Assembly: GCF_006345805.1 (NCBI RefSeq)
Contig: NC_042998.1
Location: 179,614,001 to 179,678,000 of the forward strand
Direction: 5' to 3'
Length of the DNA stretch: 64,000 nucleotides
DNA from: Octopus sinensis
Taxonomy: Eukaryota
Below the pieces are notes generated by a model that saw only the letters and a program-made list of their open reading frames with translations, was not told where the DNA came from and ran no database searches. Position 1 is the first letter of the stretch; every line of letters starts with the position of its first letter. Positions 7,688-60,395 of the stretch are shown here, piece by piece. Made by a program: the position numbers and the translations under genes.

Positions 7688-8034
7688 AGAGAGAGGGGGA
7701 TGGTGAAGAGGAGAGGAGAAGAATAGGGAAGGGTGAGAGAGAAAACCAGAAAGGATGAAGAACAAGAGAGGGAGAGAGATGGACAGAGAAGAGATAGTAA
7801 AGGTAGAAGAGTGCGCATCGTAATTATTAAGATAAAACTTACTTGGAAAGGGATGCGTGGCGTTCGATCATATAATATAGATATAAATAATATATATATA
7901 TATATATATACGTATGTATATGTATATTTATATACGTATATATATATGTATATAAATATATATATATGTATATATATATATGTGTATATATATGTATATA
8001 TATGTATATATATATGTATATATGTATATATATG

Positions 8035-8099: not shown

Positions 8100-9870
8100 T
8101 ATATATACACATATATGTGTATGCATATATGTATTTACCTATATATATATATACCAATATTTATATACGTATATATGTATATATGAATATATATATATAC
8201 ATATAAATATATAAACATACACACATATATATTTTTATTTACATATACATATATACTTCACATATATACTTTATACATTCATACATACTTTACACTTGCA
8301 TATATACTTAGATGCACATAACAGGTACACACATACAAACACATAAAATATTCCCAAGTTGAATATGCATATTCACATATCTATTATCAAATAAATAAAC
8401 GCCACCACCATCACATACCAACACAAACAAACCAAAAAACCCCATAGATATCCATACACTCTCCTGAAATAAACTTCTGCTTACATCTGCTGACATACGA
8501 TGAAAAGAATCCCTTACAGAGACCTCATCGCCTGTATTGGAAATAACTGGTTTTGTTGACTATGAAGAACCAGAGATCGTCTTTGTGATCAGAACAATGT
8601 AAAAACGTCATTTACTTGGACACTCAAGTGAAGGACCTTTAGACTGTACATACGTGTCAGGTAGCTGTCATGTGCGGTGAGTTTTAGTTGGTATGATGTC
8701 GTAATAGGAGGTTCACTCAGATCAAGACCAGTTCAATACGCGTACAATATAAATTTCTATCTCTATTTGAAGATGGTTTGAGAAACTTCGCCCAATGTAA
8801 TGGACTTCATTTTGACAGTTTATGGTCATTAATTTTCTATTCGTATAACTGATACATACAGTATCTTACAACGACAACTTTTAGACGACACTGACACACA
8901 TACACACACATACACACACACACACACACACACTCACACATACATATGTAGATATACATATTTGTGTGTGTATATATATATATATATACACATATATGGT
9001 ATGCATATATGTATTTACCTATATATATATATACCAATATTTATATACGTATATATGTATATATGAATATATATATATACATATAAATATATAAACATAC
9101 ACACATATATATTTTTATTTACATATACATATATACTTCACATATATACTTTATACATTCATACATACTTTACACTTGCATATATACTTAGATGCACATA
9201 CAGGTACACACATACAACACATAAAATATTCCCAAGTTGAATATGCATATTCACATATCTATTATCAAATAAATAAACGCCACCACCATCACATACCAAC
9301 ACAAACAAACCAAAAAACCCCATAGATATCCATACACTCTCCTGAAATAAACTTCTGCTTACATCTGCTGACATACGATGAAAAGAATCCCTTACAGAGA
9401 CCTCATCGCCTGTATTGGAAATAACTGGTTTTGTTGACTATGAAGAACCAGAGATCGTCTTTGTGATCAGAACAATGTAAAAACGTCATTTACTTGGACA
9501 CTCAAGTGAAGGACCTTTAGACTGTACATACGTGTCAGGTAGCTGTCATGTGCGGTGAGTTTTAGTTGGTATGATGTCGTAATAGGAGGTTCACTCAGAT
9601 CAAGACCAGTTCAATACGCGTACAATATAAATTTCTATCTCTATTTGAAGATGGTTTGAGAAACTTCGCCCAATGTAATGGACTTCATTTTGACAGTTTA
9701 TGGTCATTAATTTTCTATTCGTATAACTACACATAAGTATCTTGTATAACAGACAACTTTTAGACGACACTGACACACATACACACACACATACACACAC
9801 ACACACACACTCACACATACATATGTAGATATACATATTTGTGTGTGTGTATATATATATATATATACAC
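8100..9870 (+). repeat. Near-perfect tandem duplication, period 878 bp
   Basis: ACATCTGCTGACATACG at 8483 and 9361; identical ORF starts at 8496 and 9374; breakpoints lie in TA/CA microsatellites. Confidence 0.97.
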
Positions 9871-28462: not shown

Positions 28463-29876
28463 AGAAGGAGAGACAAATAGAGAGAGTGAGAGAGAGAGAG
28501 AGAGAGAGGAGAAAGAGACTTCGGAAGAGATAAAAAAATCAAAAGAATATTCAAGATGGAGACATATCACAAAATCTTGCTCAGAGTTTCTTGTAATCGA
28601 TCTTCAGACAGAAACAAAACTCTTCCCAGATATGTACGTATATATGTACGTGTGTATATTGATATTGTTGTTGTTGTTTACGTTCATTCTAAAAGGTTCT
28701 ATCATTCTGCCCTTGTATCTCAGTGTTAACATATTAACTATATATACATATATATTTATTGTGTGTGTGTTTTTATTTATACACACGCATAATTGATGAA
28801 GGATTTCAGTACATTCTGAACATCTACCCTTTTACTTGAGATAGGAAAAAAATTAGCCTTTCTGTCAAGGGGTCTTTTTACTTACACTTTTACTGGGGTA
28901 GGGGAAATTTTGACGTTTCTGCATTTCTCAATCTGCTTCCACATCTTCACGAACAGTCATTTTCAAAATTTACACGCAATGAAAGATGATCCTTCTAGAA
29001 TCAACAGTAAGAGAAGCTCACCACAACAGAGATAGCACTAACATAAGCAAACAAGCTCGCAAATTATTTATCCAAATTAATTGGCAAAGAGTCGAAAAGT
29101 GACACTTTTATGCAATACAATAAACGCACTCACATACAAATGTTGAAAACTAATATAAATTTAGAAAAAAAAAAACAACTGAAATGTTCCTTATTTATTA
29201 AATTTATATAGCAGAAGGAATAAATCGATTTGATCCAGCACAAGGGAAAGAAGTTGGTAAGATATTTCACAAAGGATAGTACTTACCTCCCCAACTAGTT
29301 TGTGCAAGAAATAGAGAGAAGGAATGTAGCATACCTCTGTTTTTCAAAAAGTAGACGAGGTGAAGGTTTCATATTCTCTCGAGGGAAGAGTTAGATGATG
29401 CCTTGACAGATTTGTAGCAATATGTATTTCATTGACTGAGACAGGACATATAGAAGCATGTTCTCTGTTTAAATTTAAGACTGAGGTCAAAGCGAAAGCG
29501 AGAGATGGTTTGTCATACACCTGCGCATAGGATGGTTACGTAGTGCGTTACGTCTCAAAAACGTTAGAATCATGCCCGAGATATTTCTGTTATCAACTTT
29601 CACACAATACTACGCGTACGTGAGTAACGCAGACGTAATTTGGTGAATACATCGCATGTGCCTACAGGAATCGCTTAAAAGCTTTTTCACAACCAATCAA
29701 ATTTAAATGGCTTCATATTTCGATGTATTTACGAAAATTGTTGCTTATATGATGTTACACTGCTACGTTTCTTCAATCGTTTTGTTAAGCAAGATGAAGT
29801 TTTAAGAAGCTCCAGCTTCAATAAAATATACTTTCTATCTATCTATTTATCTATTTATCAATCTACCAACCAATTG

Positions 29877-30506
29877 TGTATCACAGAAAATTTTAAAAGT
29901 GTAAAAAGTAAGATTAGGTTTATAAGTGGAAAGAAAAGCCTAGGGAAAAGACCACGGTAACCTCAGACAGGGGGGTAATAAACACATGGGAGTGGCACTG
30001 TTTGATTCACGACTGCAGTTCGGCCTAAGAGACGAGCTGCGGGAAAGCGCGCTGCACAAACGTCGACCACACCTGTTCACCGTTGTCTATGAAGGGCCGA
30101 AGATGCCGCAGTCTCAGCGCATGTCTGCGCATCATCAACTACAGCATGCCTAGCCCTCCATTTAGCGGGTATTGACAGCAAATGGATCGCCTAGCCATCG
30201 GAACGCTTCCCTTCCACAAAAAGCGGAAGAGTATGCATTCCAGTTTATTGATGGTAGGGTTGGGACAAGGCACGACGGTCAGACGGTTATCGATGATGGA
30301 TGCGATGTACGCGTTCGACACCTCCGCCCGACATTTTAGGGATAGCTTCCTCTCGGCCCATTGCTGGGTGAGAGTAGCCACCCTAGTGGTTTTTTTTTTC
30401 TCACGATCCCTTTTCATCGGAATTTCATTTTTCTCCTTTTTTCCGAAAAGCTCTACATTGTATTTTATCCCTTCTGTGTTCGGCCCTGTGTGGTTAATAA
30501 AGAAAC
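29877..30506. mobile_element. Third Tx1-like copy: inverted 5' segment (29877-~30389, minus) joined to a sense 3' end (~30401-30506)
   Basis: 30001-30389 is the reverse complement of the ~33725-34112 region (WAERKLSLK...FRFLWKG...GGLGM); 29877-30000 is the reverse complement of the 3'UTR; 30403-30506 is the sense 3' terminus ending AATAAAGAAAC. Confidence 0.9.
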
Positions 30507-30666
30507 TTATCTGCCAATCTGCCAATGTATCTACCAATCTACCTACTATCTACCAGTCTATCCAACTAACTATCTACCAATCTACCAACCTATCTATCTA
30601 CCTATCTGCCAATCTATCTATCTTTCTATCTCACTATCTACTAATCTATCTACCTATCTACCAAAC

Positions 30667-31801
30667 TATGAGGATTAGTGGAGGGAGGTGCGACGATATT
30701 CTTGGTCAGAATCTGGGCGTCGACGAGGAACACCTGACCCACCTGTTCAGGACAAATTTCGGCCCGGGATCTATGGACAATACCCTGAGATCCCTGGCCT
30801 GGCAGTGTTATCGAGATAAGCTCTACAGGCACGGTTCGAGACACACCGTTCGGGATAAGCTCTACAGGCACGGTTCGAGACACACCGTTCGGGATAAGCT
30901 CAACAGGCACGGTTCGAGACACACCGTCCGGGATAAGCTCAACAGGCACGGTTCGAGACACACCGTTCGGGATAAGCTCAACAGGCACGGTTCGAGACAC
31001 ACCGTTCGGGATAAGCTCTACAGGCACAGTTCGAGACACAACGGACCGACTTGCCCGAGTTGCGGTCAGAGCGACGAATCTGTTATGCACGCACTCGTGC
31101 AATGTCTAATCATTTCGGACCTGTGGGCTTATGCCGATCGGCTGCTATCACGTGTGGGACAAGTTCACTTGTCTGCCGAGTCTATCATGAAAATTGCTCC
31201 GACACCTTCCCTTAACCGAGAAGGCATAGCAGTCTTCATCGTGCTGGTAGCCATGGTGAACATGGTGAAAGAATGTGTGGTGGACTCGAGCGAAAGGTTT
31301 AGAGACAAACACTTTCCTCTCTGGCCAATCGCTCATCAACTTTTTCAAATTCCACTTGAAAAGGAAGGTGAGAATAGAACAAGTTTTGTCTCGTGAAAGT
31401 TTCAATAAAAGATGGGTGAATGTAGCAAAGATGGTGCGTGTGAGCGACGAAACCACTTTGAGCTTGATCCTGTAAATCGAAGAGAGAGAGAGAGGAGGGG
31501 GGAGAGAGAGGGGAAGAGAGGGAGACAGACAGACAGAGAGACAGAGAGAGAGAGAAACAGAGACAGCACTTTGCTCTCATGTATTTTTCCCTCCGTGCCT
31601 GAGGTTGCCGTGCTCTTTTCCGAAGGCCTTCCTTCCCACGGATAAACTTAATCTTTCTTTTAACATTTTTAATATTTTCTGTGATGTACGATCCCTTTTG
31701 ATCGGAATTTTATTTTTCTCCTTTTTTCTATTTTCAAAAAGAAAAACTCTACATTGTATTTTGTCCCCTCTGTGTTCGGCCCTGTATGGCTATAAAGAAA
31801 C
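30667..31801 (+). mobile_element. Second, shorter 3' copy of the same Tx1-like LINE family (ORF2 C-terminus + 3'UTR)
   Basis: Collinear with 34218-35256 (RSLAWQCYR, CPSCGQSDESVMHALVQC zinc knuckle, KGLETNTFLSGQSLINFF); ends TATAAAGAAAC before a CTAT array. Confidence 0.93.
30812..31040 (+). repeat. 39-bp tandem repeat (5 full units + 1 partial) inside LINE copy 2
   Basis: Unit CGGGATAAGCTC(T/A)ACAGGCACGGTTCGAGACACACCGTT, head-to-tail with no spacers; reads RDKL(Y/N)RHGSRHTV in frame; present only once in the 34384-34418 copy. Confidence 0.97.
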
Positions 31802-31839
31802 GTAACTACCAATCTATCTACCCATCTATCTACCAATCA

Positions 31840-31920
<81 letters not shown>

Positions 31921-32035
31921 CCAATCTATCTATCTACCAATCAATCTATCTATCTACCAGGTGGTGCTATTAAGTTAGACATGGCCTGGGCCAATAATGG
32001 CCGAAACCTATCAAAGTATCAAAGTATCTATCTAT

Positions 32036-34844
32036 CTGTAGGACAGTAGATAGAGATAGCATAGGATGTCCACAATTCCACATAGTCAGCTACACGGATC
32101 ACAAACTTGTGACATGTACGCTAGACTTAGGTAAGACACTTAGGCAGGGTCCCGGATACTGGAAACTAAACGCGTCTTTCCCATCGAGACAAGTTTCAGA
32201 GACCGGATTAGCACACTAGTAAAGAGGGCTTGACGGGAGCCATCATCAACAACAAATGGTGGTTTGCCCTCAAGAGAGCAGTAAAAGCAGAAGCGATTAG
32301 GTACAGCAAAGCACTAGCCATAGATAGAAATAGAGTAGAGGGTGAGCTAGTTAAGAAGCTAGAAGAGGCAATTAGAAGCGGCATCGCATCCGACGTTTTT
32401 GCGGCGAGGTTGGCCCTCGACAACACTTCAACGCCAAACACGAAGGATGTGCTGTCAGAGCTAGGATGCGTGCTCTAAGGAACGAAGGTGTTGGAGCCGC
32501 GAGAGAGGCTCGGTGGCAGAGGCGCAACAGGGCAACAAAGCCACCATTCGGTCACTGGTAGATGAACGGGCGCGAATTGCTCGAGCCAAGTAAAATGTGT
32601 GAGGCCTTTCAGCAGCATTTTGCCCGACTGTTCGGAACGAGTGGAGGGCAAGAACGTAGGGTGGACTTCATTGCCTACCTACATAGCCTACCACGACTCT
32701 CGACAAGAAAGGCAGGGTGCTGCGAAGGTGCCATCACGGCGCGGAAGTGCAGGAAGCGATGGCAGAATGCTCGAGGGACAAATCACCGGGTTTGGATGGT
32801 CTACCCTACGAGCTTTACAATTGTATTGCCAGACTTGTTTGGAGATCTCTTGCGGCGGTGTACTGCAACTGGCAGCAAAACGGGAGCATTCCTGGTTTTG
32901 TGAGCCGAGGAGCCGTAACACTGCTGAAGAAAGATCTAAACAAGGGAAATGTAATAGATAACTTTAGGCCCATCACTCTGCTTAATGCAGACTTGAAAAT
33001 TTTGGCAAGGTGCTAGCCAAGAGGTTGGCGCTTGTCATCGAGAAACTGGTCGACAAGGCGCAAACATGCGCCGTGCCAGGCCGGACCATCCATGACAACC
33101 CCATCTGATGCGCTACATCATAGACAGGGTAGTTAACGAACTGGCATGGGTGGGGCCCTGATCAACTTGGATCAATCAAAAGCCTTTGATAGGGTAGACC
33201 ATCGATACTTGGAGGCAGTCCATGAGAGCGGCTGGTTTCGGTCCGTCTTCCGCGGCTGGATAGCTGCCTTGTACAGAGGCATCCGTTCGGTAATTCGCGT
33301 AAATGGACATCTATCGAGACCGTCGACATTGCACGTTCGGTCCGTCAGGGATGCCCCCTCTCGGCGCTTCTATACGTATTGACTCTTGAGCCACTACTGC
33401 GGAAGCTGGCGACTCTAAGGGGCATCCCGCGAGAATTGGGATGCGGGACGAGCGTGTCTGCATACGCGGACGACGTCACCGTCATAGTGTCTAGCCACGA
33501 GCACATCGAGCTGGTCGGCGAGACACTGAAAAACTACGAAGCGGTGACAGGAGCGAAAATCAACCGGGAAAAGTCAGTGGGCTTGCGACTAGGCACCTGG
33601 AGAAGCAAGCCCATGCCGTCCACCAGCGCCTCCGTCGTGGGACGCTGGACCGACGGCCCGGTTGAGTTGCTCGGGGTCTGGTTTGGTCCGGACCTCCAAG
33701 TGGAGAAGAACTGGAACGAGATAACGAGTAGGGTGGTCACTCTCGCCCGGCAATGGGCCGAGAGGAAACTGTCCCTAAAAGGTCGAGCGGAGGTGGCGAA
33801 CACGTACATCGCGTCCGTCATCTTACTACCGCCTGACCGTCGTACCTTGTCCCGACCTACCATCACCAAACTACAACGCATCCTCTTTCGCTTCTTGTGG
33901 AAAGGATGCGTCCCGATGGTCAGGCGATCCATTTGCTGTCAACACCCGTTAAAAGGAGGGCTGGGCATGCCGTGGTTGATGATGCGCAGACACGCGCTGA
34001 GACTGCGACATCTCTGGCTCTATGTAGACGACGGTGAACAGGTGTGGTCGCCGTTTGTGAGGCACGCTTCCCGCAGCTCGTCTCCATGACCGAACTGCAG
34101 TCGTGGATCCAAAAAGAGGCCGAGGAAGGGCGAATGGCACCGCGAGTGTCGCGTTGCTCTCAAGCAACTCTGCCGTCCTGGGTCGACCTTAAGTGACTTC
34201 AACACAACCAAAGCATTCTATAGGGGTTTAGTGGAGGGGAGGTACGACGACGAGCTCGGGGCGAACCTGGACGTCGACGAGGAGTACCTGACCCGCCTGT
34301 TCGGGACGACTTTCGGGCCAGGGCCCATGGACAACTTCCAGAGATCCCTGGCCTGGCAGTGCTACCGAGAAGCGCTACCCGTTCGGGATAAGCTCTACAG
34401 ACACGGCTCGAGAAACACACGGGCCGACCTGCTCGAGATGCGGTCAGAGCGACGAAACCGTTCTGCACGCACTCGTCAGTGTCCAACAATTTCCGACCTG
34501 TGGGCTTATGTCGAACAACTGCGTCACGTGTGGGACGAGTCGGTTTATCAGCTGAGTCTATCGTCAATATTGTCACGCCTCCTTCCTTCAAACGGAAGGA
34601 GAGCTATTTTCATCATCCTTGTGGCTATGGCGAAAAATGTATCTGGTGGACGCGTCTGAAAGGATTGGAGACAAACACTTTCCTCTCTGGTCAATCTCTC
34701 ATCAACTTCTTCAAGTACCACTTGAAAAGGAAAGTGAGAGTAGAGAGGCAAGTTTTGTCTAGCGAATGTTTTAAAAAAAGATGGGTGAATGTAGCAAGAA
34801 TGGCACGTATGAATGACGAAGCCACCTTGAGCATAGTCCTATGA
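32036..34844 (+). pseudogene. Disrupted ORF2 (endonuclease/reverse transcriptase) of the Tx1-like LINE
   Basis: ORF-track pieces 32230-32478, 32562-32903, 32717-33016, 33146-33382, 33379-34089, 34231-34659 and 34479-34844 tile one RT protein with many frameshifts; stop at 34842-34844. Confidence 0.9.
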
Positions 34845-35256
34845 ACCCAGAAATCGAAAACAGAGAGTTGCTTATTTGAAAAAAAAAAAAAAAAAAAAAA
34901 GAAATATAAAATGTGACTTCATTGCCGAGGTTACCGTGGTCTTTTCCGCAGGCTTTTCTTTCCACGGGTAAACCTCACCTGTCCTCCCCTTTACACTTCA
35001 TATTGACATTTCTGTGATAACGATCCCTATTGATCATTTTTTTTCCTCTCCCCCCCCCTTTTTTTTTTTTTTTTTTAACCCCCCTTATTTTTGTCCTCTT
35101 TCTCTCCTTTTACGATCCCTTTTGATCGAACCTCCCCCTTCCCTTTTTTTTTTTTTTTTTTCTTTCTTTTTTTTTTTTTTTAATACCTTCAAAAGAAAAG
35201 CTCTACCTTGTAATTTGTTCTATCTGTGTGCAGCCCTGTGTGGCTAATAAAGAAAC
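32036..35256 (+). mobile_element. 5'-truncated L1/Tx1-clade non-LTR retrotransposon (end of APE endonuclease, RT, C-terminal zinc knuckle, 3'UTR), frameshifted
   Basis: Motifs in order across frames: YTDHKLV and PGYWKLNAS (APE C-terminus, ~32091-32177), KSPGLDGLPYELY, NFRPITLLNADLKILA, LINLDQSKAFDRVDH, SVRQGCPLS, AYADDVT, GAKINREKS, LSLKGR, FRFLWKG, GGLGMP. GC-rich relative to the flanks. T-rich 3'UTR ends AATAAAGAAAC, followed by (CTAT)n. Confidence 0.95.
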
Positions 35257-35776
35257 ATATCTATCTACCAATCAATCTATCTATCTACCAATCAATCTAT
35301 CTACCAATCAATCTATCTATCTACCAATCAATCTATCTACCAATCAATCAATCTATCTATCTATCTATCTATCTATCACCTATCTATCTATCTACCTACC
35401 TACCACTCTATCTTCCTATCTACCTATCTACATCATCTAAAGTTAACAATGTGTCATATGTATCACGTGCATCATATGTGAGTATGTATAGATACATACG
35501 TACAAATAAACATGCACATACAAACATGTACACACATGTACACACATACATACACATATAACCGACTCACATATATATATCCCTTTAATATATGTTTGTG
35601 AACAAAACTTTACACATATACATCTACTATTTCCTCTTCTTTATCGCAGTTGTTTATTGCTTTGTTTTTCATAAAGTATTCTCTAACTCTTCTGGCAATT
35701 TATTAGTTTTTCATCATTTGAGATAAAAACAAAATTGAAATGAAAAATTATTTGAGACCAATGAAAATAAATCAAA

Positions 35777-59220: not shown

Positions 59221-60094
59221 TATATTATAATATATACATGCGCACACACACATACATTTATATATACACATACATACACACACATACACACACACAAGCA
59301 CACAATTCACGCACCCACGCTTCCACAGAACACACGCACACATATAAATCGTTCATTTAGTTTCACACACAAAACACCTGACCCCCCCACTACAACACTC
59401 ATTCCTCCTTCTCTCTCTCATTGGCACTTCCTCTCTCTGCCCCCTCACCCTCTCTCTGTCCCTTTCCCTCTCTCTCTCTCTCTGTCCCCTTCCCCCCTCT
59501 CTCTCTGTCCCTCCTGTCTCTCTCTCTCTGTGTTCCCTTCTCTGCCACTTCTTCCTGTCTGTCTCTGTTTCTCTCTCTCTCACCTTGTCCTACATTATCA
59601 AACACCTTTCTCTTTTCAATCGCATGGCCAATCATATACTGGTCCATCTACTCAATTCCTTTAATACAGTTACAGATTTGAATTCCGCTTAAGGACATAT
59701 ATTGATCTGACAAATCAAAACAAAACTAAAATACAAAATACAAAACAAAATGGAAGTATAAAAAAAAACACAACAAAAAAAACTACGAATATATAATGCA
59801 ACATATGTAACAACCATTTCACCATCAGTTCTCTCCCCCCCACCGCCGCCCCAGAAAGGTGGAAGAGAGACTATAAAAGAAATAAGTAGAAAAACTAAAT
59901 TAACCAATATGTGTGCATGAGTAGTGTGTGTGTTTGTTTGTCTGAGCGTGCGTAATATTCTGTGTCGTTCATTTTTATTTTCTAAATTAAGATGGTAAGT
60001 TAGTGTTTAGTATTCAGAGCAAAGTGTTGCGAATGGCGCACAATAAAATGCAAAGCTGCTTTCCTTCTCGTTCACCACCTTTACTCAAACATGA

Positions 60095-60125
<31 letters not shown>

Positions 60126-60198
60126 ACACACACACACATACACACACACACACACACACATACACGTGCGCGCAAATTGACACGTATATATCGAATTC

Positions 60199-60395
60199 TT
60201 GCATGTCTGTGTTTGTCCCCTCAGCATCGCTTGACAGCTGATGCTGGTGTCCCCGTCACTTAGCGGTTCGGGAAAGAGACCGATAGAATAAGTACTGGGC
60301 TTACAAAGAATAAGTCCCGGGGTCGAGTTGCTCGATTAAAGGTGGTGCTCCAGCATGGCCACAGTCAAATGACTGAAACAAGTAAAAGAGTAAAA
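60199..60395 (+). mobile_element. 3' half of family A SINE, inverted relative to the adjacent copy
   Basis: Nearly identical to the reverse complement of 60492-60681. Confidence 0.9.

Follow-up and report, generated by a model that had tools for sequence, protein, structure and literature searches.

Among LINEs of the Tx1 clade, families that insert into (TC)n (Kibi) and (TTC)n (Koshi) have been described from teleosts, and others that insert into (TTCC)n or (TTTC)n from crocodilians (PMC4494074, PMC3812793), with the presence of one kind of sequence in >20% of flanks serving as the working criterion for target specificity (PMC4494074). Further microsatellite-targeting non-LTR elements are Waldo (ACAY), MinoAg1 (AC) and Dong (TAA) (PMC3812793), as well as Togen, whose target is (TG)n (PMC4640811); a review names ACAY, AC, TC, TTC and TAA as the microsatellite targets and describes the mechanism of targeting as ‘not well understood’ (PMC3812793). 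Only Tx1 and R1 are said to be APE clades with site-specific members (PMC6007223). Mammalian L1 shows a target-duplication peak at 14-16 bp, twin-primed 5' inversions and extra 5' bases from upstream starts (PMC2912911), and RTE, CR1 and L2 LINEs have microsatellite-like 3' tails (PMC6007223). For octopus, a repeat annotation from 2026 reports 13 recently active L1-Tx1 families, the word ‘target’ being absent from its main text (PMC13282606). Our literature search returned no GATA/CTAT-targeting Tx1 family and no target of an octopus Tx1 family; such a target may already be on record in Dfam, Repbase or papers under subscription, or in supplements to PMC4494074 and PMC13282606.

Here we analyse a window of 64,000 nucleotides from Octopus sinensis (contig NC_042998.1, positions 179,614,001 to 179,678,000 of the forward strand), in which three copies of one LINE family are stacked between CTAT-type tracts. 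All positions given for the window count from its first letter, and the tracts are also referred to as arrays 1-4.

The stack of LINE copies in the window

The features of the stack are collected in Table 1. A first-pass annotation made from the letters of the window had described three diverged copies with 3' ends on the + strand and no poly(A), and this was borne out: the ends lie at 30506, about 31801 and 35256, and the terminus of the window copies is AATAAAGAAAC or a near variant, being AATAAAGAAAC in copy 3, whose ORF2 is disrupted by frameshifts. The placement of all three copies on the + strand holds for their 3' ends, but most of copy 1 (29876-30391) lies on the minus strand and only its last part (about 30400-30506) on the plus strand. 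Likewise, same-strand CTAT arrays do border each copy, but array 3 is not the 5' flank of copy 3, a place taken by a separate TATC tract of 12 nt. Outside the stack, CTAT-like sequence (at least 14/16) on the same strand was found at 11 of 1,431 window positions, so the eight same-orientation CTAT junctions within the stack are not a matter of chance. For the order in which copy 3 and the CR1-like scrap were inserted, readings of the duplications fit both ways. To look for a neighbouring host gene, 81 of the 204 candidate window frames were scanned, none of which matched Pfam above the cut-off. A weak IQUB-like Pfam match at 59991-60260 on the + strand (E=0.0013, below the cut-off) is possibly an exon or a chance match.

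Table 1. Window positions of the stack and of its parts
Feature	Position	Strand	Evidence
Whole stack: three copies of one LINE family and a CR1-like scrap between CTAT-type tracts	29834..35430		
Tract 1, degenerate (CTAT)n, 5' flank of copy 1	29834..29875	+	TRF 29834-29865
Copy 1, inverted segment, 3' UTR part	29876..29992	-	81% match to 31574-31685 of copy 2
Copy 1, inverted segment, ORF2 part	30001..30391	-	84% match to 33723-34112 of copy 3
Copy 1, direct 3' end, older subfamily, terminus AAACT	30400..30506	+	83-85% to copies 2/3; family 22-mer match (locus L196)
Tract 2, (CTAT)n with CCAATC variant units	30507..30665	+	Repeat call and motif count
Copy 2, 5'-truncated, about 1.1 kb, most diverged of the three	30666..31803	+	74-80% to copy 3
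Tract 3, (CTAT)n with CTACCAATC variant units	31804..31955	+	Repeat call and motif count
3' scrap of another LINE family (CR1-like), (TATCAAAG)2 tail	about 31956..32024	+	1,640 exact genome matches of its 25-mer
(TATC)3 tract, 12 nt, true 5' flank of copy 3	32025..32036	+	Sequence
Copy 3, young, 3.2 kb, 5'-truncated within the endonuclease region	32037..35256	+	RVT_1 E=1.1e-12
Tract 4, (CTAT)n with CTACCAATC variant units	35257..35430	+	Repeat call and motif count

Size, structure and affinity of the family

By pattern search, a 22-mer from the 3' end of the element has 5,483 exact matches in the genome (reversed control, 0), and a 22-mer from the 5' end, marking intact 5' ends, has 451. Six full-length natural copies that served as references measure 6,057-6,193 nt, which makes the element roughly 6.1 kb long. 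At least two and probably three subtypes (L089, L058 and L032/L082) have ORF2 and the 3' end in common and are ~70-80% alike in the 5' UTR and ORF1, resembling in this the replacement of 5' regions in other LINEs. Matches above the cut-off were obtained for Exo_endo_phos, RVT_1 and zf-RVT in ORF2 of L060 and L041, and ORF1 of L058 gave a weak match to the zinc knuckle zf-CCHC (E=0.003, below the cut-off). The layout of ORF2 matches mammalian LINE-1 PDB entries (E=2e-54), with the endonuclease domain aligning with L1 endonuclease structures, and among named proteins the nearest is one of Argonauta hians (68%). Contigs from four studies with three organism labels give deep coverage of the element.

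In an RT tree of 36 rows, for which 33 of 143 homologues were taken and which includes no named Tx1 family, the octopus family groups with proteins of Argonauta, lancelet and sea turtle (98/94), with the Ciona and plant L1-group rows standing apart. Both the element and the turtle and lancelet rows contain the RT motif DQxKAFDRVxH, taken here as a mark of Tx1 as against the L1-type DAEKAFD; human L1 reads otherwise. The two-ORF layout, with a weakly matched zinc knuckle in ORF1 and endonuclease, RT and C-terminal zinc finger in ORF2, fits the Tx1 clade and the L1 group at large. Membership of the Tx1 clade is likely, judging from the grouping in the RT tree and the motif.

The scrap ahead of copy 3 belongs to a second family, presumably CR1-like to judge from its motifs. 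It is 100% identical over 68 nt to several copies elsewhere in the genome, longer copies of its family encode RT, and the family enters the 36-row tree as a long outside branch only. Copies at 30 loci (L121-L150) carry a (TATCAAAG)1-4 tail or a near variant. By eye, (TA)n follows the 3' end at about 24 of these 30 loci and also stands on the 5' side of several truncated copies, and opposite-facing pairs occur (L134-L136). This young CR1-like family may prefer (TA)n.

Junctions of the family across the genome

The first-pass annotation had proposed that the family targets (CTAT)n, and tabulating the flanks of genomic copies lends strong support to this proposal, the flanks not being random. We found that 3,719 of the 5,483 3' ends continue as ACWTATCTATC, running into TATCTATC, and 346 as ACWTAT followed by non-C, and that continuation into opposite-strand GATA amounts to four matches at 3 sites. 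Poly(A) follows none of the 5,483 ends (searched as the 22-mer and then eight A within 6 nt). Opposite-facing copies within GATA repeat were noted at three sites (L068/L191, L192 and L193).

Both sides of the copies were read at the first 87 listed sites of contig C1, which after removal of 13 short duplicates gave 77 loci with 103 copies, five of the 103 having no readable 5' flank; the junction samples consist of the first sites on contigs C1-C3 rather than random ones, and include three identical 68-nt copies at L075. CTAT stands on the 3' side of 89 of the 103 copies, and the opposite strand on that of one. At the 5' breakpoint of truncated copies, the corresponding counts are 67/91 for CTAT and 0/91 for the opposite strand, with 43/51 for CTAT among those at least 88% alike to a reference, as compared to a background in the same loci of 36/2,104 and 10/2,104 (<2%). 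Since a truncated 5' end cannot carry a repeat encoded by the element, the CTAT found there is derived from the target. Full-length 5' ends adjoin CTAT in 28/30 and 58/60 cases (86/90 together), the first set overlapping the C1 sample. All of this lies well beyond the >20% of flanks used to recognize target-specific non-LTR elements (PMC4494074), and we consider it very likely that the family targets (CTAT)n/(GATA)n in a strand-specific manner.

Target specificity is not strict: unique DNA and repeats of the types (TA)n, (TTA)n and (CTTT)n also contain copies. No 5' CTAT was scored for 24 of the 91 truncated copies, of which about 10 are by eye boundary errors in diverged subfamilies and the rest are real off-array sites. 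Exceptions to the target include two diverged copies in (TTA)n (L167 and L168), one copy in (CTTT)n (L043) and several in (TA)n, for example L042. In addition, L117 and L118, which are ~4.8 Mb apart on C1, have a unique 3' flank common to both that suggests segmental duplication or 3' transduction.

The 5' leader and inverted copies

Among 63 full-length copies, five have a non-repeat marker in their target duplication, and in all five a CTAT-like leader of 3-20 nt stands between the duplication and the core of the element. It is likely from these junctions that transcripts start within the upstream array, so that the RNA carries a CTAT leader; untemplated addition or a template jump may also be the source of the leader. 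At L233 (G000:C1:134305500-134315000), where the inverted part of a copy reaches the 5' end of the element, 11-12 nt of the CTAT repeat are found at the internal joint near 7777-7794, away from target DNA.

As read from its segments, copy 1 of the window is a 5'-inverted copy with twin-priming geometry: in element coordinates, the left end of its inverted part and the start of its direct part adjoin (copy-2 positions 31685 and 31688), which is the breakpoint geometry described for twin priming (PMC2912911), and ~0.8 kb of the element is missing between the inverted ORF2 and inverted UTR parts. Inversions with matching breakpoints were found in one of the three window copies (copy 1), one of 98 copies in the 3'-end sample (L042) and one of 30 in the 5'-end sample (L233). 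Our literature search found no report of twin priming in Tx1 elements or in invertebrates. At L067 (oriented 8815-8818), a copy of 3.8 kb is fused without a repeat spacer to one of 258 nt; this may be a template jump and suggests that the RNA ends in AAACAU.

Proposed route of insertion

LINEs insert by target-primed reverse transcription, and taken together with this route the junctions suggest the following steps. Nicking of the GATA strand of a pre-existing array by the endonuclease would expose a 3' end, which would anneal to the final 1-3 bases of an RNA with the terminus ...AAACAU(AU) and so prime reverse transcription. The CTAT strand would be nicked in turn, at a distance of 9-18 nt, and this would produce the target duplication. 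The RNA's CTAT leader, once copied, could pair with the second end of the target, and this second end would occasionally prime early on the RNA, yielding inverted copies like copy 1. Every insertion would split the array and leave target on both sides, whereby same-strand stacks would accumulate. The aiming itself may be due to selective nicking of GATA by the predicted endonuclease or to pairing between RNA and DNA. Tentatively, we suggest that the element may put the GATA microsatellite to threefold use: its endonuclease would cut there, its transcription would start there (with the leader guiding the joining of the second end), and the repeat would renew itself as a landing strip, lengthened by duplication and leader each time a copy inserts. 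We regard this combination as quite possible rather than probable.

In a compatible variant of this explanation, base pairing would do most of the aiming: read-through RNAs whose 3' end includes a few CTAT units would anneal to GATA strands that a loosely specific endonuclease has nicked. The 5' leader suggests that repeat sequence enters the RNA, L294 may carry additional 3' units, and all ten resolved off-array duplications start with TAT or ATAT, the last bases of the element, with the qualification that eight of the ten have non-C after TAT and thus fit the search pattern by which they were selected. However, the array-edge insertions L242, L291 and L296 have the duplication directly after AAACA, with no added units, and the spacer-free junction of L067 shows the end at AAACAT. 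Furthermore, (TA)n would pair with UAU just as well and its tracts outnumber those of CTAT in the window, yet at most 346 ends, as against 3,719, continue in that manner. We judge this variant to be the less likely one.

Origin of the flanking repeats

The arrays could also be younger than the copies that they flank, if elements landed at short TATC seeds, arrays grew later on both sides by slippage starting in the leader and the duplicated target, and the family were a net source of GATA arrays. Duplication and leader together add 10-35 nt of repeat per insertion, and no empty site was seen; at the stack, contigs from four runs of four studies cover the unique left flank to 29823, and none spans the arrays. 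However, copies with 97-98% likeness to the references have long arrays at their flanks, and in many copies either the 5' or the 3' side alone bears a long array, as predicted for random positions in an existing array. Arrays also far outnumber elements, with 21,017 perfect CTAT-type tracts of at least 24 nt genome-wide in one of four starting phases, a phase that accounts for 47 of 466 tracts in the sampled loci, and local variant units recur across three sub-arrays of the stack. Growth from seeds is therefore improbable, and insertion into existing arrays remains our preferred reading.

The first-pass annotation had further suggested that the tail of the element seeds the arrays, which as an account of an element-encoded 3' tail of (CTAT)n or CTACCAAT repeat we find very improbable. 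While CTAT does follow most sampled copies (89/103), it also adjoins truncated 5' ends (67/91), and in ten off-array copies the 3' end of the element abuts a target duplication of 9-18 nt with no repeat tail (in unique DNA: L022, L057 and L083, partly by eye; L114 and L119; L153, L156, L157, L169 and L185), as it does in copies at array edges. Most other off-array copies, which are mainly old, have no detectable duplication; five in a set of 40 loci gave one in unique DNA. Among 51 younger truncated copies, the tracts on the 5' and 3' sides are equally long (medians of 72 vs 69 nt, p=0.81), as expected for insertion at random points in existing arrays. Seeding of repeats, if any, is likely small and due to the 5' end and the duplication, not to a 3' tail.

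A similar picture emerges for the variant units, which had been described as present in the bordering arrays and largely absent elsewhere. Exact counts of CTACCAAT/CCAATC are 2/4 in array 2, 4/4 in array 3 and 5/5 in array 4, as compared to 0/0 for the six further window tracts of CTAT type included in the count; the description thus fits these three arrays but not array 1, which has 0/0 and only CCAA (2) and CAAT (2). Across the genome, the CTACCAATC variant lies within 30 nt of only nine of the 5,483 3' ends, two of these in the window, a further point against an encoded tail. The variant units are best read as marks of one local array that was split by insertions, and not as borne by the element.

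Stacking and the relationships among the three copies

Among 99 intervals between listed sites, neighbours within 7 kb are on the same strand in 12 cases and on opposite strands in one, when 0.7 of each would be expected under uniform spacing, and for 16 of 90 full-length copies a further 3' end lies at most 400 nt upstream. Same-strand stacks are a common outcome for the family, and not special to the window. Template jumping as the source of the five closest pairs among these 16 is unsupported, the partners being unlike in sequence. Repeated insertion exactly at the 3' junction of a neighbour is not general either, given a median of ~150 nt for 22 spacers; spacers ahead of full-length copies are short in 5/16. 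L075 has three identical 68-nt 3' ends, with upstream flanks also identical, in one long array, and looks like local amplification.

The three window copies are 74-85% identical in pairwise comparison, with different 5' breakpoints throughout and one inversion. Copy 3 is 97-98% alike to six sampled distant copies, while copies 1 and 2 are older, the best match of copy 2 among the copies compared being 83%. Within copy 2 (30811-31040), a 39-bp unit of ORF2 is repeated in tandem 5.9 times at 96% likeness. Short copies of the family do duplicate locally, as at L075, but an origin of the stack by local duplication, an outcome that the first-pass annotation had raised against its own reading, does not agree with the divergence and distinct truncation points of the window copies, the inversion of one of them or the 98% likeness of copy 3 to distant copies, nor could random insertions passively surviving in repeat-rich DNA yield an orientation bias of 3,719 vs 3, so that both are improbable in the extreme. 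The three copies are most likely separate insertions into a single pre-existing (CTAT)n array, whose state before insertion we infer.

Comparison with known systems

The targeting result overturns no principle. It extends the microsatellite targets known for APE-type LINEs, which are few, to GATA/CTAT, and does so in an invertebrate host. Within a single genome the family provides >5,000 copies, insertions both on and off target, and 451 intact 5' ends, an unusually large natural data set that is suited to telling endonuclease choice from RNA-DNA pairing. It also calls for caution with GATA microsatellite markers in octopods, which can sit at LINE junctions. If the reading of a threefold use of GATA is true, the family would also document twin priming in an element other than mammalian L1, one of its inverted copies retaining the 5' end of the RNA.

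The octopus family is a site-selective retrotransposon of a known sort, for which the GATA/CTAT target, the probable repeat leader of the RNA and the apparently twin-primed inversions are new. Like Kibi, Koshi and the crocodilian Tx1 families, it is an APE-type LINE with microsatellite on both sides; compared by description, it differs from them in its (CTAT)n/(GATA)n target, which is no pure pyrimidine tract, and in its invertebrate host. Its flanks are (CTAT)n instead of the (TC)n or (TTC)n of Kibi and Koshi, with one sampled copy (L043) in (CTTT)n. Waldo, MinoAg1, Dong and Togen share the insertion into simple repeats but belong to other clades and use other repeats, GATA/CTAT appearing in neither of the published lists as far as the text of those papers gives them. 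The resemblance to mammalian LINE-1 extends to ORF2 layout, duplication length, 5' inversions of twin-priming geometry and extra 5' bases; unlike mammalian LINE-1, the family has no 3' poly(A) (0/5,483), a narrow repeat target and rare inversions. With RTE, CR1 and L2 LINEs it likely has in common that a short match between RNA end and target is used for priming, but it is without an encoded repeat tail, whereas the CR1-like scrap, the fourth element of the stack, has a 3' tail like those of RTE, CR1 and L2.
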